DNA of 64,000 nucleotides from assembly GCA_028864975.1 (NCBI GenBank), contig JAGWLG010000003.1, positions 1-64,000 on the forward strand. The letters run 5' to 3'. The position numbers were made by a program, and so were the translations under genes. The DNA is from Thermoplasmata archaeon (GTDB lineage: Archaea; Thermoplasmatota; Thermoplasmata; Lutacidiplasmatales; UBA184). The notes beneath the pieces are model-generated. The model did no database searches, was not told the DNA's origin, and saw nothing but the letters and a program-made list of their open reading frames with translations. Positions 766 to 14,318 of this stretch are shown piece after piece (within the stretch, counting starts at the first letter, position 1; the number at the start of each line of letters is the position of its first letter).

Positions 766-1127
766 CACGCCTCGAGCCACCGCTCGGCCGTGGCTCGGGG
801 CAAGTGGGGAGCACTAGTCCGAACGAGGGCGCGGAACTTGTCCAGGAACTGGAGCATTCCGGCCCCCCTGGGAGAAAGCTCCACGGCGACTCGGATTGAC
901 CGCCCCCGGGGGTGCTTCTCCCACTTGGCCCCCTTGGCGGCACGCACCCAGACCAGATCGTAGAGCTCGAGACCGTGTAGGGCGAGGCGGAAGCTCTCGG
1001 GATGGATGTTGGAGCCCTTGCGGACCTCGAGAGGGTCGTGGGGCCCGCCGTCGCGCAAGTTCTCCAGGATCACGGGGGCATGGGGATTCTGGATCACCCA
1101 TGTGAGCGGGTCCTCGGGCAGCTTCAT
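765..1127 (-). CDS. Putative winged-helix DNA-binding protein
   Basis: 120 aa with a wHTH-like pattern (ILENL...FRLALHGLELYDLV...VELSPRG..ML). A GAAGTGA SD-like motif precedes the ATG. Confidence 0.55.
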   Translation of the reverse strand: MKLPEDPLTWVIQNPHAPVILENLRDGGPHDPLEVRKGSNIHPESFRLALHGLELYDLVWVRAAKGAKWEKHPRGRSIRVAVELSPRGAGMLQFLDKFRALVRTSAPHLPRATAERWLEA

Positions 1128-1577
1128 CGAGGGTCACTTCTGCCCCGGCAGGGAGCCGCTTACAAGTGACTTGAACGCGCCGAGGTTCATAAGGCCTCGT
1201 GAGGTCCTTCGTGTGGGGTGGCCTCGGGGTTCTGGGGGCTCTCCTTCGGAATCCACGACTTCGCGAGGGACTCCGAAGAACGGATGAACGGGGCCCGAGA
1301 AGCGAGCTTGGCCCGGGGAGCATAACCGACGAACTGCAGCCTGTGTTGAGCGACGCGCGCTGTTCGGAATAACCTACCCCTCGCTTCCGCTGAAAGGCCA
1401 GAGCTTGGCGCGTACCCCCATGGATTTGTACAAGCGACCTAGGCTGTAATCGCGAGGGAAGTCCAGGAGGGAGCATCATGAACGTTCTGAACGAGAGGGA
1501 TCCTCCCCTCGGTCAGGCGGCGGGTCGGACGTGATCCCCCGTCCCGGACGAGCGGAATCGAAACGGAAGAGAGCATG

Positions 1578-2846
1578 TCAGGGGCCTGGAACCGCCGCAG
1601 CCGCCGGCTCCTTGGACCGCTCAGGTGGGCGGCGCGGGATTCCTTGGCCACCTCCGGCGGCCCTGTCCCTGGCTGTCGTTCGGGGCGAGTTCCTGAGCCT
1701 TGCCGCTAGCGCGAGCGTGTTGCCCGCCAGCAGCGCCAGGAATGGCAAGATCGAGGACCACGACTGGTGGGCCGAGAGCGGGGTGCTCCCGAGGCTCCAG
1801 AGCGCGCCTAGCAGGACATAGAGAGCGCCGACCACCAAGCCGTACCGCCACATCCATCGGGTCTGGGAAGGCGCGCACCGAGGCTCGGGAACCATCCAGA
1901 GGCCGAAGAAGACGGTGATCGGGGAGAAGAGGACCGTGCCCAAGGCCGCGACGGACAGCCCGTTCTGGACACCGAGGACCAGCCCCTCGAGAGGGAGCGC
2001 GACCGCGAAGAAGGAGACGGGCAGCCACACCTGGCGAGGTTGACGGATGGTCAGAAGGATCCCGAGGAGCGCCACCAGGACCATCTCCACCTCCCGCGAG
2101 GCCGGGACGTGGGGGGCGGGCCAGCTGCCCACCTGCCACGAGATGGGCAGGGCCAAGAGCACGTAGCCCACCGTGATGCCCAGCGCCGTCGGGTTGAACC
2201 AAGGCCTTCCCGAGATGCGCAGCGCATGTCTCGGGACGAGCGCGGCCGCGGTCGACGCGAGGAGCAGGACGCCATAGTCCCCGGCGGCGCTCCCCCATGC
2301 CGCGTTCGGAGGTTGGAGGAGAAGGACGAGGAACATCGCGGTCGACAGCGCGGCGTCGGGGAAACGCAGGCCGTGGCGGAATCGTGCGAACTGGAGCGCC
2401 ATGTCCAGGGCGACCGCGAAGGCGACCACCAGGGCCCAGGCCTCGGCCCCGGGGACGGAGGACTGCCCTCCACCCACGAAGATGAGCGTGCCTAGGAAGA
2501 TCCACACCAGACGGACCGGGGGCAGTCTCCGAAGGACCTTCGTGATCAGGGTCCTTCGACGAGGAGCGCGGTCGGTCTCGTCCCCGCTGGAGGGCCCCTT
2601 GGTCACGTGGCTCGCGGGTTCGGGCCCCCGCGGGGGGAGGAGGGCCTGGGGTGGTTCGCCAGAGCGCTCCGGAGGGATGCCCTCTCCAATCGAGGACGGC
2701 CCGGAGGGGTCACTCGGGGCCCCGCGGGGCAAGAGGTACCAGGCGATCTGGCACCGAGGGCAGAGCTTTCCCAGGATGAGCTCGGTTTGGCACGAGGGGC
2801 ACCGCGCCAGGTCGGATGCCTTCCCCTCAGGGTCGTCGGAACTCAC
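1578..2846 (-). CDS. RnfD/NqrB-like polytopic membrane protein with N-terminal CxxC-x9-CxxC motif
   Basis: Many TM segments. Motifs WFNPTALGI and LWMVPEPRCAP resemble the FNP..G and F.M.T(D/E)P...P motifs of the NQR2/RnfD family. The N-terminus has CPSC...CPRC. ATGA overlap with the upstream gene. Confidence 0.7.
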   Translation of the reverse strand: MSSDDPEGKASDLARCPSCQTELILGKLCPRCQIAWYLLPRGAPSDPSGPSSIGEGIPPERSGEPPQALLPPRGPEPASHVTKGPSSGDETDRAPRRRTLITKVLRRLPPVRLVWIFLGTLIFVGGGQSSVPGAEAWALVVAFAVALDMALQFARFRHGLRFPDAALSTAMFLVLLLQPPNAAWGSAAGDYGVLLLASTAAALVPRHALRISGRPWFNPTALGITVGYVLLALPISWQVGSWPAPHVPASREVEMVLVALLGILLTIRQPRQVWLPVSFFAVALPLEGLVLGVQNGLSVAALGTVLFSPITVFFGLWMVPEPRCAPSQTRWMWRYGLVVGALYVLLGALWSLGSTPLSAHQSWSSILPFLALLAGNTLALAARLRNSPRTTARDRAAGGGQGIPRRPPERSKEPAAAAVPGP

Positions 2847-5356
2847 CCCTTCCCTCCGGGGGATGGCCGCCGCGCGGCCGACTCCCGCTTTCTCGCAGAC
2901 AGTGCAGCTCGTCCCCTCGGGCGCTCCTTCTCCGCGCGAGCAGGAAGTGCCGATCCCTCCCCTCGACCGTTACTGTCCGTCCCCTTGGGGGGAGGCTCGT
3001 TTCGGCCTCGGGACTTGACGTGCGACGGGCTCTCAGAGGATCCGTCCGACGAGGTTCCCTTGCCCGCGTGGGGCCGACGCGGGCCCCGGACCAAGAGAAG
3101 GAGAGTCCCCATCGCCATCAAACCGAGCAAGGCGAGCGCGGTCGACGCAGGGTTGCCGATCCCGTTCCACGGGACCTGGGCCTGCGCGCTCCAACGTGCT
3201 CCACCCGGTGCTGTGGAGGGCGCGGCTGACACGGTGACCGTCGTCGAGCAGTTGACCGCGTACCCTTCACTGTCTTCGACCCTCACGAAGGCAAGGTAGG
3301 TGCCCGCCCGGTGGTACATCTCGTGGGCGGTCAGTCCTGTCCGGTTCGTCGTCCCGTCCCCGAAGTTCCAGAGAAACGGCCCGGGATAGCTCCCCGATCC
3401 ACCGGTGAGACGCAAGGAGAAGTTCACGAGGAACGGAGGAGCCAACGAAGAGGACGAGGACGTGGCCGTGGCCATCAGCGAGCCCACCAGGGCGGGACCT
3501 ACGCTGACGTTCGCCTCGGCGGTCGCCAGCGCGCCATGAGCGTCGCTCACGGTGGCCCGAAGCGTGTAGTTCCCTCCCGAGAGCGGAGGGGTCGCGTAGA
3601 TGTGATCGGCCCCCGTGCAGGCCGGGTCCGTGCATCCGGACGCGGAGGAAGCGTCCCCCCACCACCACTCGACGGGGGAGTACGGAGCGACCCCCCCGGC
3701 CAGGGAGGCGACGGCGTCGACGCTCATCGGGGCCTCTCCCAGGCTCCGGTTCGTCACCACTTGCAGGCGGAGTCCGGTGAAGCTGACGTTCGTGGAGGCT
3801 CCCGCCACGTCCCCCCTCGAGTCCGTCGCCGTGGCGGTCACGACGAACGAGCCGGGAGCGGAATATCGGTGGGTGGCCTGGACACCGGAGCCAAGGCCAC
3901 CATCGCCGAAGCTCCAAGCCACCGAGTATCCACCGGTCCCGCCCGTGATCGAGGCGGTCGCCGTCACGTTGATCGGCACCGAGCCCGTGAAGGGGTCCGC
4001 CGTCACCCGGAGCGCGAGGGGCTGCACGGACCCTCCCGAGACCAAGATGGTTGGTGCATTCCCGATGCCGGAGCGACCGCTCGCGTCCGTCACCACGACC
4101 TGAGGAGTGAAGCTGCCCGCCGACCGGAAGACGTGTTCCACGGCAATCCCACTCGCCCAACTGCCGTCCCCGAACGTCCAGTTCGCCCGGAGGGGAGAGG
4201 TCCCTCCGCTCGCGTTCGCCGATAGATTGACGTGGAGCCACGCCGGACCGCTTGTCCGGTCGGCGAGCGCGGTTACCTGGAGCGGCGAAGGCGACGAGAC
4301 GGAGACCGAGGTCCAGACCCTGCTGGTCGCCCCCGTCGCATCCATGACGGTCAGGAGCGCGGCGTAGCTACCCCCCACGCTGTAGGTGTGGTTCACGACC
4401 GCGCCCGCGGTTTGGCCTCCGTCGCCGAAGTCCCACGCGTAGGTGTAGGGAAGGAGACCTCCGCTCACCGTAGAGGAGAAGCTGACGGCCAAGGGAGCGG
4501 TTCCCGTGGAGGGGGTCGCCGAGGCGCTCGCGAGCAGCGGAGGAGGACCGAGGACCGAGACCGCGACGCTCGCCTGGGACTCCTCGCCCGCGCTGTCGGT
4601 CAGGGTGAGGACGGCTCGGTAGGTCCCTACCGAAGTGTAGGTGTGGGAGGGGTCTTGGAGGGTCGAGCTGGCGCCATCGCCAAAGTCCCAGGAGTAGGCA
4701 TACGGGGGCGTCCCTCCCGATCCCCCGCCGGTGAAATTGACCGTCAGAGGAGGATGCCCCTGAACGGGACCTCCGCTCGCGGTCGCGGTGGGGGCCCCGG
4801 GGGCGGGGCCGATGTCGATGATGCCTTGGGACATGCTGCCATGCCCAGGGCCGCAGTAGGTCGTGCAGTAGACCTGGTCGCCGCTCTCGGCGACGAAGGG
4901 GGCCACGAAGCTTCCGCTGTTCCAAGAGCCCACGGGGGCGGCCATGCTGATCAAGAGCCCTCTCGACGCCGAGAGGATCCCCACCCCGTGCTGGTCCGCC
5001 CCGCCGACCCCGGCGTCCGGGGGGTAGCTCGTGGCGTTGATGTTCACCGTCCAACCTTCGTACAGATGCCAGGAGCTGGTGTCGTTCTGCCCGGTGCGGG
5101 AGTCGGTGATCCAGAAGCCGTAGTCGTAGGCGACCACGTCGAACCACTGGCCACCCGGTGAGCTGGCGGGGACCGACGGGTTCACGAGACCTCGCGGACA
5201 GCCGACCTTGCCTGGGAGGTCGCATCGGAGATCAGAGGGGAACAGGGTCCCGTACGCGGACAAGACAACAACGGCGGCGAGTCCTAACGTCGTCCCACGC
5301 CGAACCGCCTCCATGGAAGCAGGAGCCGCCCGAGGGCGATCCCGTACCTTCGTCAT
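2843..5356 (-). CDS. Membrane-anchored surface protein: CuA-type cupredoxin domain plus 6 PKD repeats
   Basis: N-terminal hydrophobic signal. His (DQH, 4988-4990) and CTTYCGPGHGSM (4832-4867) match the CuA motif C-x3-C-x3-H-x2-M. Six W(D/T/S/N)FGDG-type PKD repeats, a C-terminal TM helix and a basic tail follow. Confidence 0.8.
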   Translation of the reverse strand: MTKVRDRPRAAPASMEAVRRGTTLGLAAVVVLSAYGTLFPSDLRCDLPGKVGCPRGLVNPSVPASSPGGQWFDVVAYDYGFWITDSRTGQNDTSSWHLYEGWTVNINATSYPPDAGVGGADQHGVGILSASRGLLISMAAPVGSWNSGSFVAPFVAESGDQVYCTTYCGPGHGSMSQGIIDIGPAPGAPTATASGGPVQGHPPLTVNFTGGGSGGTPPYAYSWDFGDGASSTLQDPSHTYTSVGTYRAVLTLTDSAGEESQASVAVSVLGPPPLLASASATPSTGTAPLAVSFSSTVSGGLLPYTYAWDFGDGGQTAGAVVNHTYSVGGSYAALLTVMDATGATSRVWTSVSVSSPSPLQVTALADRTSGPAWLHVNLSANASGGTSPLRANWTFGDGSWASGIAVEHVFRSAGSFTPQVVVTDASGRSGIGNAPTILVSGGSVQPLALRVTADPFTGSVPINVTATASITGGTGGYSVAWSFGDGGLGSGVQATHRYSAPGSFVVTATATDSRGDVAGASTNVSFTGLRLQVVTNRSLGEAPMSVDAVASLAGGVAPYSPVEWWWGDASSASGCTDPACTGADHIYATPPLSGGNYTLRATVSDAHGALATAEANVSVGPALVGSLMATATSSSSSLAPPFLVNFSLRLTGGSGSYPGPFLWNFGDGTTNRTGLTAHEMYHRAGTYLAFVRVEDSEGYAVNCSTTVTVSAAPSTAPGGARWSAQAQVPWNGIGNPASTALALLGLMAMGTLLLLVRGPRRPHAGKGTSSDGSSESPSHVKSRGRNEPPPKGTDSNGRGEGSALPARAEKERPRGRAALSARKRESAARRPSPGGKG

Positions 5357-6889: not shown

Positions 6890-7764
6890 GGGTTCTTCTT
6901 CCTACGAGGGCGGCGGGGGCCGAAAAATAGGAGCGATATAAAGATGGCAAGGACCGTCACGGAGATGCCCGAGAGGTAGTAGAGCGTGTAGTCGGGCGCG
7001 GGCGCCGGGACGTAGAAGCTCACGTCCATCGATGGCTGCCCGTTCGCGAACTCGAGGACCCCGGCCCCGCCCACCAGGGTCAGCGTGAACGTGTGGTAAC
7101 CTGAGGAAAGGCCCAGCGTGGTGTAGTTGTACTTGATCTGGGCACTGCCCGCGGGGAGCAGGCTGGGGACCCGAAGGCTGCCGACGACCGAACCGTCCAA
7201 GGCCACCTGGATGACGGCGCCATCCACCCCGAAGTTGTTCGGGTTCTCGACCGTCGCGGAGATGATGTAGGGGACCACGACCTGGAACTGCCGGGAGAAG
7301 ACTTGGGTCAGGTTCTGGGCGCCGTGACCGACGCCATGGCTCGTCACGTTGAACTCGAGCGTGTAGGTGCCCGTGTGGTTGATCCCGCCTACCGTGGCGT
7401 TGACGTACTGGGCGATGAAGGCGCCCGACGGAGGGGTGACGAACGACCCCGCGGTGTCTGCGCCCACGAGCTGCGTCGTGAAGGTGTAGTTCCCGACGAC
7501 GGAGCCGTTCAAGCGCTCGGCGGGCCCGCCTTGGGCATAGGCGACGAACTTCCCCGAGCCGTTCAACGAGAGCAGGGAGGGGCCGGTGATCGAGACGCTG
7601 AAGGGTGGATAGTTCGTGCTCGAACCTCGCGAAACGCCCACGGCTGGGGTGAGCAGCGAGACGACCAACAGGGCGATGACAGCTCCCAACAAGAGAAAAG
7701 GTCGGAGGGTCGGGGAAGGGGAGGTGGGCGCAGGGGCCCCGCTGCGGAGCTTCTTCGCGATCAT
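6886..7764 (-). CDS. Secreted, C-terminally anchored Ig-like (CARDB-like) membrane protein, 292 aa
   Basis: True start is MIAKK at 7764 (ATGA overlap with the aglB stop); the listed 580 aa ORF is over-extended. It has a signal helix, a beta-rich body with N-x-S/T sequons, a C-terminal TM helix and an RRPRRKK tail. Confidence 0.75.
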   Translation of the reverse strand: MIAKKLRSGAPAPTSPSPTLRPFLLLGAVIALLVVSLLTPAVGVSRGSSTNYPPFSVSITGPSLLSLNGSGKFVAYAQGGPAERLNGSVVGNYTFTTQLVGADTAGSFVTPPSGAFIAQYVNATVGGINHTGTYTLEFNVTSHGVGHGAQNLTQVFSRQFQVVVPYIISATVENPNNFGVDGAVIQVALDGSVVGSLRVPSLLPAGSAQIKYNYTTLGLSSGYHTFTLTLVGGAGVLEFANGQPSMDVSFYVPAPAPDYTLYYLSGISVTVLAIFISLLFFGPRRPRRKKNP

Positions 7765-10700
7765 CGGCGCACCCACCTCCGTGTGCGCCACCAGCGCCAG
7801 GTCCCGGCGATCGCGACGATGGCGAGCCCGGGAAGGACGGTGAGCAGCGGGAACAGCCAGTTCTGGTAGTCGGGCGGAGGCGAGCCCCCGACAGAGGGCC
7901 CCGTGACGACGGGGGTCGCGTTGAACGAGAGCGTGGCGTGGCTGAAGGTCGGGAGGACGGCGAAGGCCCTCGCCTGCGGGTTCGAGAGGTCCACCCCCAT
8001 GACGTCGACCGAGTTCGGCATGATCGGAAGGAGGCCGTGCGGGAAGAGCTGCACCTCGGCCTCGACCGCGGCACCCGAGGGGGAGACCGGTTCGGGGGCG
8101 ACGATCGGAGCCCCGGAGGTCGCGGAGGCGATGTCGTAGGTCCATCCGTCCTGCTGGAGCTCCGCGCCGTTGGCCACGGAGAGCGTCACTTGCTCCTGCG
8201 AGTTCCCGGTCGAGGCCAGGTGGAATCCCAGGACCACGACGCCCGCCTTGATCGAGTTCTGTGCGGTCGTCGGCCCCATCGAGATGCCGTAGACCGCGAC
8301 GATGTTGAGCGGCACGTTGACCGAAGCGAGCGAGGTCCCTCCGCTCTGGAGGAGGACCTGCAACGTCACCGGCGAGGGGCTCGAGGAGGTCCCGGCCGGT
8401 ACCGTGACGGCTACGTCGACCGCCTGGGAGCGGTTGTTCACGGCCGGTCCCAGGGTAAAGTTCCCGGGGAAGAAGCGGATGGTCCAGGTGCTCGGGGTCC
8501 CGGACATGCGCACAGCCATCGGGGCGTTCCCCGTGTCGTTCACCACGACCTGATAGTAGACGGTCGACCCGTCCGCGACCGTGGGGGTGCCCTCCCCGAC
8601 CCGGGTGATCGAGGCCGCCCGGGTCCATTGGGGGTTGAGGGTCAACGGCACGAAGGCGTTCGCCGCCGCGACCGTCACGTTGACCGCCCCCAGGAGCTCA
8701 ACGTTGGCGCCGTAGGGTGCGATGGAGCCCCGAGCGGTGACCTGGAAGGGCCCGGAGGGCAGCACCAGGGGGTAGGACCCCACACTGAGATTGGCCAGGG
8801 TCACGTTCGGTCCACCGACATGGGCGAAGGTGAGCGTCACCGGCGTGGGGGCCGGGACGCCGGACGGGGTCGCGATCCCCAGGGTCTGGACCCAGCCCGA
8901 GGCCAGGTTCAGCGCGAGCGGGATCACCGAGGAGGAGTAGCCCACGGAGAGGGTGGTGATGTTCACCTCGGGAGCCGCGGTGCTCGAGAGGACCGTGTAG
9001 AGGGTGTACCGGCCGGGGAGCAGGCTCAGCGACGCCGCTCCTCCCGAGATCGGGAAGACGATCGGCGTGCCGCCCGCCGCCGGATCCGCGGTGATCGTTC
9101 CCGATCCCCCCGAAGCGGGCGCGCCGTTGATCAAGAGCGAGGGCACCACGGTGTCGTAGGCGCGGGTCACCTTGGGGACCAGCACGCAGGTCGAGCTCCC
9201 GCTCGCGGCCACGGCGCACGTGTCCGCGCTCGAGTTCGTCTCGACGGACCAGAACTGCGTCACCCCTCCCACGTCCAATAGGAGCGTCGTGTTGAGCGAG
9301 AAGGTGTACCCTCCTCGGGGGAGGAGGAGCGTCGCGTTCCCCGCCGAGGAGGTCGTGACGTTCGCCCAGGTACCGTTCCCGTTCGAGAAACGCAAGCTGA
9401 GGGTCGTGTTGAGCACCTGACCGAACGAGGCCTTCATCGAGAAGTCGAGCTTCCCCGCGGGCAGGAGCGTCGCGTTGGGGAGCGAGGTCGTCCCGTCCGC
9501 GTGCAGGGTGAGCGGGTCGAAGAACGCGTAGGGGGCGCTGCCGTTCTCCGTGGAGAGCCAGAGGTTGCAGGTCCCCGGAGCGGCCTCGAAGCCCTGGCGG
9601 AGGGTGCTCCCGTTCGTGGCGAACGTGCCGCCGGGGCAGGAGAGGACCGCGTAGGTCTTGTCGAGCGCGAGGCCCAGGGTCGTGGTGTTGAAGTGGTAGC
9701 GGACCGAAGTGCCCATCGTCAGATTGAGGACGAGCCCCTTCGACCCGATGGGGACGGTCAGCGTCGAGTTGCTGAACGGATGGAGCGAGCCGTAGGGAAG
9801 GAGAGGCGCCCACGCGCTGACCCCATAGGTCCCGGGGTAGAGGTCCACCGTGACGTTCGTCCCCGTGGTGTTGAGCGCGACGGCGCCGGAGGAAAGGGCG
9901 GTGAAGTTGAGCGCGGGCGTGGAGCTCCCTGCGGACGCATTGTGGACCACCACCTGGACGGGGACGCGGGAGATGTTGAGAGCGATCTGACTGTAGAGGG
10001 CGTTCAGGTCGCTCTGGGGCACGCCCGAAACCGCGAACGGAGAGAACCCGTACTCAGAGGCCTGGAGCGAGAAGGTACTGGTGCTGATCGGAAGGTTCAC
10101 CGAGAGGTTGCCGTCCGAGCTCGAGAGGAGCTGCTGGGTCGCGCTCGCCGCGTCCAACGTCAAGCTCACGGGGACGAATGCCAGGGGATGGAAGACCCCG
10201 TTCGTCTCGTACCCGACCTTGGCGTGGTAGGGGAAGGAGGGGGAGAGCGTGAGGTCGGTCGTGGTCGGTCCGCTCACGACCGCGGCCGTGAGACCCGCCC
10301 CGGTCACCCCGGTCTTGGAGTAGTTGGAGAGGATCGTGTAGGCGCCCTCGGGCACCCAGAGGAGGTAGCTTCCTCCGGTGCCGGTCACGGTGGCGACCTC
10401 GGCGCCCTGGGCGTTCTGGACGGTCACGCTGACGCCGCTCGTGGGTCCTGGTGAGCCTCCCGTGACGTAGGCGTGTCCCTCCAGGGGCTGCGCGGGCGCG
10501 AGGGCGAGGACGGAACCCGCGGAGAAGACCTCGGCACTGGCCGAGGTCTCGCGGAGGTCGCCCATACCGGCCACGTAGGTGCCGTTCACGACCCCGAGGG
10601 CGTAGACCGACCAGTTCCCTGCCGAGATCGTGGCGTGGACGTATCCGTCGCTGCCTGCGAGGAAGACCGAGGACCCGGCTCCACTGGCATCGAGGGAGCT

Positions 10701-13700
10701 GAAGCGCACCGGGACCCCAGGGACCGGGTCGCCGCGCAGGAGCACCTGAAGGTCGACCTGGACCGGAGTGGTGAGCGTGAGGTTCTCGGTGAGGTTCGTC
10801 TGGAAGCTCACGATGCTGGGGTGGTTCGGGAGGGACCTCCGCCCGTAGGCATCGGAGGCGACGAGCGAGTAGTTGCCGGGGACCACCGGGCGGAAAGTGA
10901 AGTTCCCTCCCGTCGTGGTGAAGGTGGTCGTGGGCCCGTCCGGTCCGGTCAGCGTGACCTGGGCGCCGACGACACCCTGTCGCGTCTGATTGCGGACGGT
11001 GCCGTGGATCTCCGTGAGGTGGACGCCCAGGCTGTCGACGGAAGTGCCCCCGTTGAGCAAGTTCACGGTCGCCTCGGGGAGGGTGAAGCTCCCGACCGAG
11101 ACCGAGACGTTGTAGGCGCCGGGTGCGAGGGAGGGGAAGGAGAAGGTGCCGCTCGCGTCGGACGTCGCGGTCTCGGTCGTGCCCAGCCCGTTCGAGATGC
11201 CTACGGTCGCCCCAGGGATCACGGTGTCGCGCGTCTGGAAGGTAGTTTGGTTCGCCGTGTTCCAGTAGACCGACCCCTGGATCGAACCCGGCCGAAGGAC
11301 GATGTGCGGAGTGATCGGGGTGGTGTCGTAGCCGAAGCCTTGACTGGTGGGGACGGTCAGGTTCAGTTGCGAGACCTGGGTCGCCCCGACCTGGGTCAGG
11401 GGTGTCAGGGCCCCATAGCTCGCGGTGAACGTGTCGTTCCCCGGGGGCGCCGTGAGTTGGAACTGCCCGTGAGCATCGGTGACCGTGGTCATGTGCGGGG
11501 TTCCCCAGCTGTCGTCGACGGTGAGTCGGATCCCCGGGACGGGGCTCCCGTCGGGCAGGGTCACCGTTCCCTGGACCTGGGCACCGGGGTAGTACTCGAG
11601 GACCGTCTCGCCCCCGGAGCTGAAGTAGCTGGAGGGGGAGAGGTCCGCCGTCCCCTGGTTGGCCTTCTGGTGGGCCGCCGCGACATCCTCGTTCACCGCA
11701 GCGAAGCAGTTCGGGTGGGCCTGGTAGTCCTTGTACGGACAGTAGTACGCGGTGCGGTAGCCCATGACGAAGTGCTGCATCATCCAGCCAGGCTCCGGGT
11801 TGTTCCCCTGGAGCGTGACCCCGGGCACCCCCTGTCCGGCCCCGACCTGGCTACCGTTGTAGCCGATCTCGATCTTGTAGAGCATGCTCTGGTAGAAGGC
11901 CGGCTTGTAGTTGATCTGGCTCGAGACGCTCTGGACCCCGGCGGGGACCTGCCCGAGCTGGTAGGTCTGCCCGTCGCTCCCGGTCACGGTGACGGTGAAG
12001 TAATAGGTCGGGATCCCTCCTGAGCCGATGACCCCGTCCGTCAGGTCGACGGGCGCGTAGAAGATCCCGGTGTTCGATCCGCTCGTCGGGAAGAGACGGG
12101 TGTCCCCCATCGCGTAGCGGATGGACCACCCCGTGCAGGACTGGAGGTCCTGGTAGGCCTGGACGACCCGGTTCTCGTTGACCGACGAGGCGAGGAAGTA
12201 GCTCACCGCGTCGTACATGGCGTTGAGCGCGTCCAAGTGGCTGTTGTCCTTCGGCCCGTAGAAGCCGGGGTTGTTCGCGACCAGACCCACGTCTCTCGAG
12301 GTGTTCAGGAGCAAGCTCTGGAGCTGGGTCGTATTGACCCCGTCGGCCCGCAGCTGTCCGTAGAGGTTGCCGATCTGGCACTGGGGGGCAGCCCCGGGGT
12401 CCTTGGCCAGGGCCTCGAGGAGGTCCGTCGCCATGTAAGAGATCCCGAGCGACTCGTTCTGGGCGAGCAGGAAGTTCCCCGCGGGGTCGATCCCGTTCTG
12501 GAAGTTGTCGGCGACGGAAGGATGATGGCCCTGATCGATGGCCTGGAAACCGTAGTCCCACCAACTGACGAAGGCGGGTCGCTGGGCTTCCGGTTCAAAG
12601 GTGTCCTGGGTCGAGAGCCAGCTGTAACCGCTCTGGTCGTACTGCTGGGGGGTGTCGGTCTCGATCCCCGCGATCCCGAGGTAGAACGAGGAGGCGTTCG
12701 AGGGGCTCGTCTGGAGGACCGAGGGGAGCGAGGCGTAGATCTGTTGGCTGTACTGCCCCTGAACGTTGTACGGGATCCCGGCGTCGACGGCCCAGGAGAC
12801 GTTCGGCAGGACGACCAGGACGACCAGGATGCCCAGGATCAGGTGGCGGGCCTTGAAGGAACGGCGCAGCGCGAGGAGACGCCCTCCGCGCTCGGAGAGG
12901 GAGGAGAGGTTCCTCCGCAGCTGGGGATACCCTCCGACCCGGTCCAGCGCGATGATCAGGACCTCGGCCGGCAGGAGCACGAAGATCGGCGAGCCCAGGA
13001 GGAAGAACTTCGCCGCTGAGATCGGGAGGTAGATCCCCAGGAGCCCGAGGATCACCATGAAGAGGTGCTCTCGGCGGAAGCGATAGACGAACAGGTAGGC
13101 GATGAAGAGCGCAAGCCCGACGAAGGTGAGGAGGAACGTACCGATCCCGTAGCTTACGATGAGGGCATCGAAGCTGGGCGCCTGGGCTTCGGCGACGGTC
13201 GAGAAGATCAGGTTCTTGACGAAGTAGCCCTGACCTGTCAGCACCGACTGGAAGTAGTAAGGGTTGTAGACGTAGAGCGCGGCCCCCGCCCCGACCAAGC
13301 TCAGGACGAACACCGGCACGCTGATGACCCAGGGCTGGTCGCGCAGGAGCAGGAAGGGAAGGAGGACCAGCAGCCCCCCGAAGAAGAGGAGCAGAGGGAC
13401 CGTGAACCAGTACCCGAACTCTCCCTGCGCGAAGTAGTACGGCATGGCCATCAGGAAGCCGATGGTCCCGGCGAGGAGGGTCGTCAGGTAGGCGCCGAAC
13501 GAGTCGTGCTTGCGGACGCGCTCGATGAGGACGAGGAGCGCGAGGTAGACCATGATGACGGTGATGACGTAGGTGTACCCCTGCCAGGCGAACATGGTCG
13601 CCCCGAGGCAGACCCCTGCGAAGACGGACCACTTGACCGCGTGCTCCTCCCCCCTGACGAAGGCCTTCACCCCGGCCCAGATGGCCCTGGGGGACCGGTA

Positions 13701-14318
13701 GGACTCGACCCAACGACGCGTCCCCGAGAGACGGATCGCGCGCAGGAAGGCGTAGGAGGTGAGCAGGACGAAGAAGGTGTAGAACGACAGGTAGTTGGCG
13801 TAGGTCGCGACCGTGCTCTGGATGTTGCCCACGACGAACGGGTAGAGGAGGGCCGCGAGGAGCCCCACCCGCTTCGAGCTCACCTCCTTCCCGATGAGGT
13901 AGACCGGGAAGACGCCCAGCGCTGCCCAGACCGCGGGCTGCATCTCGAGCACCCACATGCCGGCGCGGACCGCATCCCCGCCGAAGAACGGGGCCAGCAG
14001 GATGCCCAGGATGGCGTTCATCCAGTCGAAGAGGGGCTCACGGGGGTTCTGCGCCCCGACCGGGTAGTTCAGGAGGGGGTCGTGGACGAGGTTCGAATGC
14101 GTTCCTATGATCCACTCCATCACGCGGGAGTGGTAGAACGAGTCGGAGCCCCCGGCGTAGCAGTAGGAGATGTTGCAGGTGTTGATCAGCTGGTAGGCGT
14201 AGAGGACACGGATGAGGAAGGAGATCGAGGCCGCGACGAGGAGGAGGGTGACCGCGAGGCCATGCTTCTTCCACCAGCTTTCGTGGCCTCCCACGACCGT
14301 TTCTTCGGCGTCGGCCAT
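7761..14318 (-). CDS. aglB: Oligosaccharyltransferase AglB (STT3) with very long beta-sandwich C-terminal extension
   Basis: Multi-TM N-terminus with DSFYH and TVAE motifs, and WWDYG at 12549-12563. About 1300 aa of carboxypeptidase-regulatory-like repeats and a final TM helix follow. Confidence 0.93.
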   Translation of the reverse strand: MADAEETVVGGHESWWKKHGLAVTLLLVAASISFLIRVLYAYQLINTCNISYCYAGGSDSFYHSRVMEWIIGTHSNLVHDPLLNYPVGAQNPREPLFDWMNAILGILLAPFFGGDAVRAGMWVLEMQPAVWAALGVFPVYLIGKEVSSKRVGLLAALLYPFVVGNIQSTVATYANYLSFYTFFVLLTSYAFLRAIRLSGTRRWVESYRSPRAIWAGVKAFVRGEEHAVKWSVFAGVCLGATMFAWQGYTYVITVIMVYLALLVLIERVRKHDSFGAYLTTLLAGTIGFLMAMPYYFAQGEFGYWFTVPLLLFFGGLLVLLPFLLLRDQPWVISVPVFVLSLVGAGAALYVYNPYYFQSVLTGQGYFVKNLIFSTVAEAQAPSFDALIVSYGIGTFLLTFVGLALFIAYLFVYRFRREHLFMVILGLLGIYLPISAAKFFLLGSPIFVLLPAEVLIIALDRVGGYPQLRRNLSSLSERGGRLLALRRSFKARHLILGILVVLVVLPNVSWAVDAGIPYNVQGQYSQQIYASLPSVLQTSPSNASSFYLGIAGIETDTPQQYDQSGYSWLSTQDTFEPEAQRPAFVSWWDYGFQAIDQGHHPSVADNFQNGIDPAGNFLLAQNESLGISYMATDLLEALAKDPGAAPQCQIGNLYGQLRADGVNTTQLQSLLLNTSRDVGLVANNPGFYGPKDNSHLDALNAMYDAVSYFLASSVNENRVVQAYQDLQSCTGWSIRYAMGDTRLFPTSGSNTGIFYAPVDLTDGVIGSGGIPTYYFTVTVTGSDGQTYQLGQVPAGVQSVSSQINYKPAFYQSMLYKIEIGYNGSQVGAGQGVPGVTLQGNNPEPGWMMQHFVMGYRTAYYCPYKDYQAHPNCFAAVNEDVAAAHQKANQGTADLSPSSYFSSGGETVLEYYPGAQVQGTVTLPDGSPVPGIRLTVDDSWGTPHMTTVTDAHGQFQLTAPPGNDTFTASYGALTPLTQVGATQVSQLNLTVPTSQGFGYDTTPITPHIVLRPGSIQGSVYWNTANQTTFQTRDTVIPGATVGISNGLGTTETATSDASGTFSFPSLAPGAYNVSVSVGSFTLPEATVNLLNGGTSVDSLGVHLTEIHGTVRNQTRQGVVGAQVTLTGPDGPTTTFTTTGGNFTFRPVVPGNYSLVASDAYGRRSLPNHPSIVSFQTNLTENLTLTTPVQVDLQVLLRGDPVPGVPVRFSSLDASGAGSSVFLAGSDGYVHATISAGNWSVYALGVVNGTYVAGMGDLRETSASAEVFSAGSVLALAPAQPLEGHAYVTGGSPGPTSGVSVTVQNAQGAEVATVTGTGGSYLLWVPEGAYTILSNYSKTGVTGAGLTAAVVSGPTTTDLTLSPSFPYHAKVGYETNGVFHPLAFVPVSLTLDAASATQQLLSSSDGNLSVNLPISTSTFSLQASEYGFSPFAVSGVPQSDLNALYSQIALNISRVPVQVVVHNASAGSSTPALNFTALSSGAVALNTTGTNVTVDLYPGTYGVSAWAPLLPYGSLHPFSNSTLTVPIGSKGLVLNLTMGTSVRYHFNTTTLGLALDKTYAVLSCPGGTFATNGSTLRQGFEAAPGTCNLWLSTENGSAPYAFFDPLTLHADGTTSLPNATLLPAGKLDFSMKASFGQVLNTTLSLRFSNGNGTWANVTTSSAGNATLLLPRGGYTFSLNTTLLLDVGGVTQFWSVETNSSADTCAVAASGSSTCVLVPKVTRAYDTVVPSLLINGAPASGGSGTITADPAAGGTPIVFPISGGAASLSLLPGRYTLYTVLSSTAAPEVNITTLSVGYSSSVIPLALNLASGWVQTLGIATPSGVPAPTPVTLTFAHVGGPNVTLANLSVGSYPLVLPSGPFQVTARGSIAPYGANVELLGAVNVTVAAANAFVPLTLNPQWTRAASITRVGEGTPTVADGSTVYYQVVVNDTGNAPMAVRMSGTPSTWTIRFFPGNFTLGPAVNNRSQAVDVAVTVPAGTSSSPSPVTLQVLLQSGGTSLASVNVPLNIVAVYGISMGPTTAQNSIKAGVVVLGFHLASTGNSQEQVTLSVANGAELQQDGWTYDIASATSGAPIVAPEPVSPSGAAVEAEVQLFPHGLLPIMPNSVDVMGVDLSNPQARAFAVLPTFSHATLSFNATPVVTGPSVGGSPPPDYQNWLFPLLTVLPGLAIVAIAGTWRWWRTRRWVRR

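Follow-up and report, generated by a model that had tools for sequence, protein, structure and literature searches.

Gene organization of the locus

The window analysed here is a 64,000-nt stretch of high-GC (66–71% G+C) archaeal DNA from a Thermoplasmata archaeon of the Lutacidiplasmatales (GenBank assembly GCA_028864975.1, contig JAGWLG010000003.1, positions 1 to 64,000 of the forward strand). Near its left end lie two minus-strand genes, referred to here as gene A and gene B, which encode a membrane-anchored protein with a CuA-type cupredoxin head and six PKD repeats, and a polytopic membrane protein with the fold of RnfD and NqrB, respectively. The pair is a real and conserved module, and we infer that it is probably a previously undescribed copper-based route for electrons at the cell surface. 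The two genes and their junction are as follows:

2843..5356, minus strand: gene A, CuA-cupredoxin/six-PKD membrane protein of 837 amino acids (aa) (P0001); from the open reading frame (ORF), its translation and a match to Pfam PKD_4
1578..2846, minus strand: gene B, RnfD/NqrB-fold membrane protein of 422 aa (P0002); from the ORF, its translation, homologs with PF03116 and profile matches to NqrB and RnfD
2843..2846, minus strand: GTGA overlap of the gene A stop (TGA) with the gene B start (GTG); read directly from the sequence, with GGAGG 8–12 nt upstream

ORF calls and translations place both genes where the original prediction had put them. The overlap, given there as ATGA, reads GTGA and has a GGAGG upstream, and the two genes are translationally coupled. 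The statement that no coxA, nosZ catalytic domain or other rnf/nqr gene is found nearby is correct within the window. From the N to the C terminus, the gene A protein consists of an Arg-rich start, a hydrophobic segment, a stretch with two Cys residues, a beta-rich head, the six PKD repeats, a membrane helix and a basic tail. The gene B protein begins with a Cys4 zinc ribbon, which is joined by a low-complexity, flexible linker of ~70 residues to the polytopic membrane domain.

The CuA cupredoxin head of gene A

The head of the gene A protein contains the following features:

4808..5152, minus strand: COX2-like cupredoxin domain, residues 69–183; from the AlphaFold2 (AF2) model, structure alignment and Foldseek
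4988..4990, minus strand: His123 (H-G-V-G), the upstream CuA ligand; invariant in alignment A4, 41 residues before C164
4832..4867, minus strand: CuA loop C164-T-T-Y-C168-G-P-G-H172-G-S-M175; from the pattern C-x3-C-x3-H-x2-M and hhalign to the genome's own COX2

Reading of the sequence yields the ligand set H123, C164, C168, H172 and M175 in CuA spacing. The spacing typical of COX2 and NosZ, claimed earlier on the basis of a His 41 residues ahead of the first Cys, is confirmed with His123 and C164; the corresponding distance is 39 residues in the canonical COX2 of the same genome. The pattern C-x3-C-x3-H-x2-[M/Q] was sought in all six frames of the 3.6-Mb genome. Frames of 100 aa or longer contain it only three times, in gene A, in a gene A paralog on contig C64 and in the canonical COX2, and for this reason the motif in gene A is no chance match.

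Searches with the head against Pfam, NCBIfam and the PDB, both as a single sequence and as a profile, returned no cupredoxin match, and PF00116 was not matched at E values up to 1. The head is tied to CuA domains solely through structure prediction and through hhalign against the genome's own COX2, in which the C, C, H and M of gene A superpose on the corresponding residues. The AF2 model of the head, built on 15 homologs, has a core predicted local distance difference test (pLDDT) score above 90 from residue ~30 of the model. Its best match in VIA-align is CoxB (4w9z), with a Z-score of 12.0 and a root-mean-square deviation of 2.4 Å over 106 residues; the first 48 rows of the ranking are all oxidase subunit II/CyoA chains (Z 10–12), followed by the CuA domains of NosZ at Z 9.7–9.8. 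Foldseek also places oxidase subunit II first (E 3e-6).

Alignment A4 comprises 26 head homologs that are 46–65% identical. The strong ligands H, C, C and H, as well as the Gly residues of the site (G, G), are invariant throughout; loss of the Cys and His ligands in homologs had been raised as an objection to a CuA site, and all four are kept in each of the 26 sequences. The axial position is variable: among 27 related loci it is occupied by Gln in 22, by Met, as in the window, in four, and by Leu in one. An axial Gln is normal elsewhere among cupredoxins, for instance in the stellacyanin-type blue copper sites. To our knowledge no natural CuA site in which Gln replaces the axial Met is on record, a point for which the papers searched offered no confirmation.

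One reading of this variability is that the site is mononuclear or degenerate, and that the protein serves mainly as a PKD adhesin or surface-layer component. It would fit with the missing Pfam COX2 match, with the exchange of the axial Met in most relatives, and with copper binding by the head being a prediction. However, that the four strong ligands and the loop Gly never vary among sequences of only 46–65% identity indicates selection on the site, the fold is nearest to that of CuA domains, and Gln is accepted as an axial ligand elsewhere among cupredoxins; we therefore regard this reading as quite improbable. As modelled, the gene A head is an outward-facing cupredoxin of the COX2 type with a conserved binuclear-CuA ligand set and predicted copper binding.

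Since both fold and ligands are of the COX2 and NosZ type, gene A might also be taken for a spare or alternative terminal-oxidase subunit II, or for a fragment of NosZ. This is hardly credible. The sole COX1 match of the genome and a canonical COX2, ~8 kb from it, already lie in a respiratory region on the same contig, ~130–140 kb from the locus, and Pfam detects no NosZ propeller in gene A. The PKD array, the second anchor and the conserved RnfD-like partner also set gene A apart from these proteins, and its family is restricted to a single family of archaea.

The head (window 4772–5239, minus strand, in alignment A4) also carries an N-A-T-S sequon, and none of the 26 homologs departs from its Asn, Thr and Ser. 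The gene A ectodomain as a whole contains 15 N-x-S/T sequons, and the cupredoxin head is, judging from these motifs, probably N-glycosylated.

Anchors, PKD array and topology of gene A

Outside the head, the gene A protein has these features:

5240..5296, minus strand: N-terminal hydrophobic segment, residues 21–39 (19 residues), signal anchor or signal peptide; from a hydropathy scan, with Arg-rich residues preceding it
5189..5239, minus strand: juxtamembrane motif P-x3-R-C-x2-P-G-x3-C-x2-G, residues 40–56 (C45, C53); from alignment A4
3221..4795, minus strand: six PKD repeats, residues ~188–712; from Pfam PKD_4 and PKD, six stretches each, and W-x-F-G-D-G signatures
3089..3145, minus strand: C-terminal membrane helix, residues 738–756; hydropathy 2.15 over 19 residues, conserved in homologs
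2846..3088, minus strand: basic low-complexity cytoplasmic tail, residues 757–837 (81 residues); 17 K/R against 8 D/E in the last 72 residues

The PKD array is matched by PKD_4 in six stretches above the Pfam threshold (E 2e-66, 220.5 bits), with the W-x-F-G-D-G signatures at residues 223, 308, 393, 481, 564 and 663. In the original prediction the CuA site stood at the distal end of six PKD repeats held by a C-terminal anchor. Pfam and hydropathy bear out the repeats and the anchor, while the placement of the head at the far end of the stalk depends on cleavage of the N-terminal segment. A copper site at the stalk tip that is wired to a membrane conduit is an internally strained proposal: the PKD repeats carry no cofactors, so no direct electron transfer could take place from a CuA centre at the tip to the membrane protein. 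Direct coupling of the head to gene B therefore needs either a retained N-terminal segment, which would keep the head at the membrane surface as in COX2, or a fold-back of the stalk. Because a head at the stalk tip could not reach gene B directly, cleavage of the N-terminal segment is the key question for the mechanism.

Cleavage is favoured by the likeness of the segment to a signal peptide if translation starts at Met15, and by a conserved small-residue motif, S-x-Y-G-T, at its end. Retention is favoured by the juxtamembrane stretch, which has the same P, R, C, P, G, C and G in each of the 26 sequences of A4 and places an invariant R-C ... C-x-G-G right after the hydrophobic residues, an unusual arrangement beside a cleavage site; this stretch is modelled at pLDDT <50. 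The public gene calls for homologs put 22–59 residues ahead of the conserved Pro after the hydrophobic segment, which is long for signal peptides, although the start codons are uncertain. A Tat (twin-arginine translocation) signal was considered and ruled out, as just one Arg is conserved ahead of the hydrophobic segment.

If the segment is cleaved, the CuA head would be displayed at the tip of the PKD stalk, where it could react with metals, neighbouring cells or soluble carriers, and gene B would meet only the C-terminal helix or tail of gene A unless the stalk swings the head back. The 15 ectodomain sequons are typical of exposed archaeal surface proteins and would suit such a display, as would the signal-peptide features described above. 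The cofactor-free repeats, the invariant Cys-containing stretch and the long N-terminal regions speak against it, and we consider it unlikely. Extracellular metals, which had been put forward as the electron partner, are not supported by anything in the analysis.

Linkage, distribution and co-divergence of genes A and B

Homologs of gene A are confined to one family of Thermoplasmata, and 264 further genomes of the class, from outside this family, yielded no head. Relatives of genes A and B occur in SubAcS10-22, SubAcS15-25 and SubAcS15-31, among others; these are listed by Sheridan et al. (PMC9287336) among the Lutacidiplasmatales, aerobic organoheterotrophs of acidic soils. The head domain matched 27 public loci, 19 of which could be assessed in that they contain a complete gene A and enough downstream DNA, and a same-strand RnfD-like gene follows in 18 of the 19. 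Of 121 family genomes searched, 25 contain the head and 76 the RnfD-like family (the latter tally takes in one unpublished genome, G321, on which no specific claim rests). All 25 head-bearing genomes also carry an RnfD-like gene, located at most ~4 kb downstream on the same strand for 22 of 27 assessable head genes. Co-occurrence of CuA-PKD genes with RnfD-family genes, proposed earlier as a check, is thus found elsewhere in both data sets. Conservation of the neighbourhood is limited to genes A and B; the TPR gene and the 190-aa gene 3' of the paralog on C64 are not conserved elsewhere.

The C64 paralog is part of a second A/B pair in the same genome, with an axial Gln, and up to three pairs are present in genomes of the same genus. 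Pairwise distances between heads are strongly correlated with those between the RnfD-like proteins paired with them (Mantel r 0.895; reached in 0 of 2000 permutations), and the paralogous pairs group alike in the two proteins. The matching distances and paralog groups indicate that the pair was duplicated as a unit, and species phylogeny by itself does not account for the matching paralog structure. Given that genes A and B are linked in nearly all relatives, a joint function is very probable, and this conserved gene order argues that the two proteins very probably work together.

In a sister group, a third gene is located between the CuA-PKD and RnfD-like genes (L020:12288-13148, plus strand; same place in L021, L023-L026, L028-L031 and L036), and it is also found 3' of one unlinked CuA-PKD paralog (L038:4124-4852). 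Its product is a polytopic membrane protein of ~260–286 aa in which a G-C-x2-C-x-P motif is invariant and another Cys nearly so. The protein is unmatched in Pfam, NCBIfam and the PDB and was not found by tblastn in the genome of the window; it may be a thiol- or copper-handling partner.

A 489-aa ORF of one relative, in which a head is fused directly to most of an RnfD-like domain (L037:3414-4883, plus strand; G312:C22), was considered as a Rosetta stone for the pair. It was set aside as a deletion remnant or assembly artefact, because it has Arg in place of the first Cys ligand, no PKD array and an RnfD-like part that lacks its N-terminal portion. A second, orphan type of RnfD-like protein is widespread without a head (L007:15501-17063, minus strand; L008:7662-9080, minus strand; L004:8001-9323, plus strand; L011:15795-17105, minus strand). 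It has an additional helix at the C terminus and a small outer domain with a Cys at either boundary, and in L004 a separate zinc-ribbon gene lies directly upstream of it. The neighbourhoods of the two other RnfD-like paralogs in the genome of the window gave no functional clue.

Gene B has the RnfD/NqrB fold without the covalent-flavin loop

The gene B protein is divided as follows:

2745..2798, minus strand: N-terminal, cytoplasmic Cys4 zinc ribbon, C17-x2-C20 ... C31-x2-C34; from the translation, conserved in P0005-P0010, with a weak Pfam DZR match
1692..2528, minus strand: membrane domain, residues 107–385, with the complete RnfD/NqrB helix core; from the AF2 model and VIA-align
2097..2135, minus strand: short outer loop, residues ~238–250, at the position of the loop to which flavin mononucleotide (FMN) is attached in RnfD/NqrB; from profile alignments

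Gene B itself scores 18.8 bits against the Pfam RnfD family (PF03116), which is below the gathering cut-off of 27.7, and its assignment therefore rests on fold and profile searches. Its homologs do carry PF03116, and the paralog at L007:15501-17063 scores 47.3 bits. The family profile matches NqrB (E 0.005) and RnfD (E 3e-4) in the PDB. The AF2 model of residues 95–400 has a pLDDT of 89.7 and a predicted template modelling (pTM) score of 0.88, and VIA-align aligns it to RnfD and NqrB chains with Z-scores of 19.5–22.6 over 246–269 residues; the next fold class, the Amt/Rh and urea channels, does not exceed 12.5. The best 15 Foldseek matches are all RnfD or NqrB. The membrane protein, whose fold had been named as a point to be checked, is thus modelled with the RnfD/NqrB fold.

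The loop that holds the covalent flavin in these proteins is lacking. NqrB residues ~233–272, which include T236, have no counterpart in the gene B profile alignment, and the RnfD stretch 137–215 is shrunk to ~9 profile positions. The distance from the N-P motif to the next conserved helix is 33–44 residues in 32 of 32 family members. ApbE was found neither in the genome of the window nor in any of the 121 family genomes, and the window's own genome (89.6% complete) has no match to the RnfA/E type (PF02508) or to the FMN_bind RnfG/NqrC type (PF04205). The label "RnfD/NqrB-like" used earlier is therefore right for the fold and wrong for the function: with the covalent-FMN loop gone and no detectable ApbE, the role of a known membrane redox subunit is not automatically transferable to gene B.

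NqrB also holds a non-covalent riboflavin in the middle of its helix bundle, bonded to T162, N200, N203 and D346 (Kishikawa et al., PMC9325719). At the level of alignment, N203 corresponds to N218 of gene B, which is invariant in both family alignments (A2, 11 RnfD-like sequences; A3, 32 sequences), and D346 corresponds to E321, invariant in A2 and conserved at 90% or more in A3. T162 aligns with T169, a position that is T, S, N or I in relatives. The riboflavin pocket appears conserved only in part in gene B, and the part that is conserved may speak for a cofactor. The alternative of gene B as a copper carrier was ranked low, its membrane core being devoid of conserved Cys, Met or His. A fusion of PF00175 to an RnfD-like domain occurs only in a distant relative, P0036, and the neighbourhood of that gene contains no adjoining outer partner.

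Comparison with known systems

The original prediction stated that no named system has this architecture. This is right for the architecture, and literature searches on CuA with PKD and Thermoplasmata, and on RnfD with cupredoxins and archaea, returned nothing relevant and no description of the pairing; papers on Lutacidiplasmatales and Angelarchaeales make no mention of such a module. Conceptually, a close precedent is provided by the bacterial two-subunit Nqr/Rnf-like complexes (Meheust et al. 2021, PMC8238504; Huang et al. 2024, PMC11334425). Their RnfD-like membrane subunit also has no flavinylation site, and it is combined with a membrane-anchored outer redox subunit that is modelled to reach a non-covalent flavin site. 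As in these complexes, the A/B module has a lone subunit of the NqrB/RnfD fold that lacks the flavinylation Thr, the gene for this subunit adjoins that of a membrane-anchored, outward-facing redox subunit, and no further Nqr/Rnf subunits are present. The role proposed for the bacterial complexes, one-way transmembrane electron transfer, is counted as common to the two, with no direction assigned in the A/B module. The differences are considerable. The outer subunit is here a CuA cupredoxin with six PKD repeats and there an FMN-bind (NqrC/RnfG-like) protein flavinylated by ApbE, neither FMN_bind nor ApbE being detected in the archaeal genomes searched as described above; gene B has an N-terminal Cys4 zinc ribbon and no C-terminal PF00175; and the A/B system is archaeal. 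Because the FMN-bind/ApbE pair and the cytosolic NAD-binding (nicotinamide adenine dinucleotide) domain are absent, the A/B module is best described as a variant, and not as a member, of the Nqr/Rnf-like complexes.

Taken singly, each protein resembles, and departs from, its better-known relatives. Gene A shares with COX2/CoxB and the CuA domain of NosZ the cupredoxin fold and the ligands H ... C-x3-C-G-x2-H-x2-M, and with COX2 also a membrane anchor ahead of the cupredoxin domain. Unlike these proteins it has no Pfam COX2 match and no subunit I or NosZ catalytic partner, and most members of its family have an axial Gln; compared with COX2, it has one N-terminal helix instead of two, and six PKD repeats and a second anchor follow the head. 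Gene B has the complete helix core of RnfD/NqrB and its N-P and acidic-P half-helix motifs, which hold two of the NqrB riboflavin contacts. It differs from RnfD/NqrB in the deletion of the covalent-FMN loop, the additional zinc ribbon, the sub-threshold Pfam score and the RnfA/E and RnfG/NqrC partners not found in the genome.

A further comparison is offered by the "nosZ-like" CuA-only cupredoxins of DPANN archaea, exported proteins with a CuA motif and without an oxidase or NosZ catalytic centre (Zhang et al. 2024, PMC10936187). Gene A is likewise an archaeal exported CuA-motif protein apart from such a centre. Compared by description, the DPANN proteins differ from gene A in that they score as NosZ, have no PKD repeats and have no reported RnfD-like partner (PMC10936187).

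Proposed mechanism

By analogy with the Nqr/Rnf-like extracytosolic electron-transfer complexes, genes A and B may form a lineage-specific two-subunit membrane module in which copper stands in for flavin; we favour this reading, while granting it somewhat less than an even chance. In this scheme, the N-terminal helix and the invariant Cys-containing juxtamembrane segment would keep the CuA domain at the membrane surface, and the CuA head would dock on the outer face of the RnfD-like protein, at the place taken by the covalent FMN in NqrB/RnfD or by the FMN of the NqrC-like partner in the Nqr/Rnf-like complexes. There, electrons would be exchanged one at a time between CuA and a flavin bound non-covalently in the conserved pocket at the centre of gene B. 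On the inner side, electrons would pass to or from the quinone pool or a cytoplasmic partner, possibly via the Cys4 ribbon. Tethering or spacing of the protein would fall to the PKD array and the second membrane helix, neither of which would carry electrons. A more specific version, in which CuA takes over the role of the covalent flavin, so that a binuclear copper site with a mostly Gln axial ligand docks on a stripped RnfD-like protein and yields a minimal copper-flavin transmembrane wire independent of oxidase and NosZ, is possible but doubtful. Of the interpretation originally given, the CuA cupredoxin, the RnfD/NqrB fold and the linkage of the two genes hold up, whereas the transfer of a redox-subunit role, the stalk geometry and the metal partner are not supported by the analysis.

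Several observations weigh against this scheme. Kinship among the genomes inflates both the linkage counts and the Mantel test. CuA-PKD paralogs with intact ligands exist without an RnfD-like neighbour (L034, L038-L040), and the RnfD-like family is commoner than the CuA gene, with 76 as against 25 of the 121 genomes; by this distribution, neither protein appears strictly dependent on the family of the other. The flavinylation motif D-x2-[ST]-[GA]-A-[ST] occurs in none of the 32 RnfD-like family members, to which the ApbE result may be added; the fourth riboflavin contact of NqrB, N200, aligns with a Pro in gene B; the gene B family alignment has no conserved Cys or His; and Pfam recognises neither the NAD-binding PF00175 nor any other cytoplasmic redox domain in the protein. 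The Cys4 ribbon sits on the ~70-residue flexible linker and is missing in some paralogs. The gene B cofactor is accordingly treated here as putative, and if the N-terminal segment of gene A is a cleaved signal peptide, the CuA head would be left beyond six PKD repeats without direct contact to gene B.

An alternative is that gene B is not a redox protein at all, and is instead a channel, a transporter, a scaffold or a maturation factor for the surface protein (for its insertion, anchoring or metal loading), with the cupredoxin exchanging electrons only with soluble or surface partners such as respiratory blue copper proteins. The missing FMN loop and ApbE, the lack of conserved Cys or His and the occurrence of the RnfD-like family without the CuA gene all fit with such a role, as do the distant likeness of the fold to Amt/Rh and urea channels and the third membrane protein of the sister group, with its invariant C-x2-C-x-P, encoded between the two genes. 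In addition, no homolog of Sco1/SenC or PCuAC was found in the genome (89.6% complete) despite a canonical COX2 and two more CuA-type proteins, so copper insertion in this lineage, including the loading of CuA, must use other factors. However, one would expect the membrane part of a copper(I) carrier to retain Cys, Met or His residues, and gene B conserves none of them there; its conserved Asn and Glu fall on the riboflavin pocket of NqrB; the Z-scores to RnfD/NqrB far exceed those to the channels; and the nearest relatives with a proposed function are electron-transfer subunits (PMC11334425). On balance a non-redox gene B seems rather unlikely.

Nearly all that is known of CuA concerns its role as the point of electron entry into heme-copper oxidases and nitrous oxide reductase, and a conserved CuA domain that works with a different membrane partner, if true, would widen this picture. 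A natural CuA site with an axial Gln, if true, would be a bioinorganic test case for the control of redox potential by the axial ligand, and for RnfD/NqrB biology the scheme, if true, would mean that the membrane core, stripped of its covalent flavin, can be put to new use with a metal centre instead. Archaea of the Lutacidiplasmatales type are abundant in acidic soils and uncultured, and the module points to an additional branch of their respiratory or surface redox network. As the head is small and soluble, the central claim, a purple binuclear copper site, is open to a direct expression test.

Respiratory cluster and neighbouring genes

The canonical respiratory cluster lies outside the window (contig C97, ~133–145 kb; locus L009). 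It encodes a 777-aa COX1 with an N-terminal extension of ~295 residues, a CtaA fragment, a weak Rieske protein, a plastocyanin-like protein and the 216-aa COX2. Within the window, an ORF of 221 aa at 814–1479 (minus strand), 3' of gene B, was taken as a wrong-frame artefact of the high G+C content, since it is Arg/Pro-rich, has no Pfam match and is dissimilar to the genes downstream of the C64 paralog; the true gene in this region may be on the plus strand, at 279–899 or 505–963. Upstream of gene A, a frame of 2185 aa at 7761–14318 (minus strand) combines the N-terminal region of an STT3/AglB oligosaccharyltransferase with several CarboxypepD_reg repeats, which makes it unusually long for an AglB.

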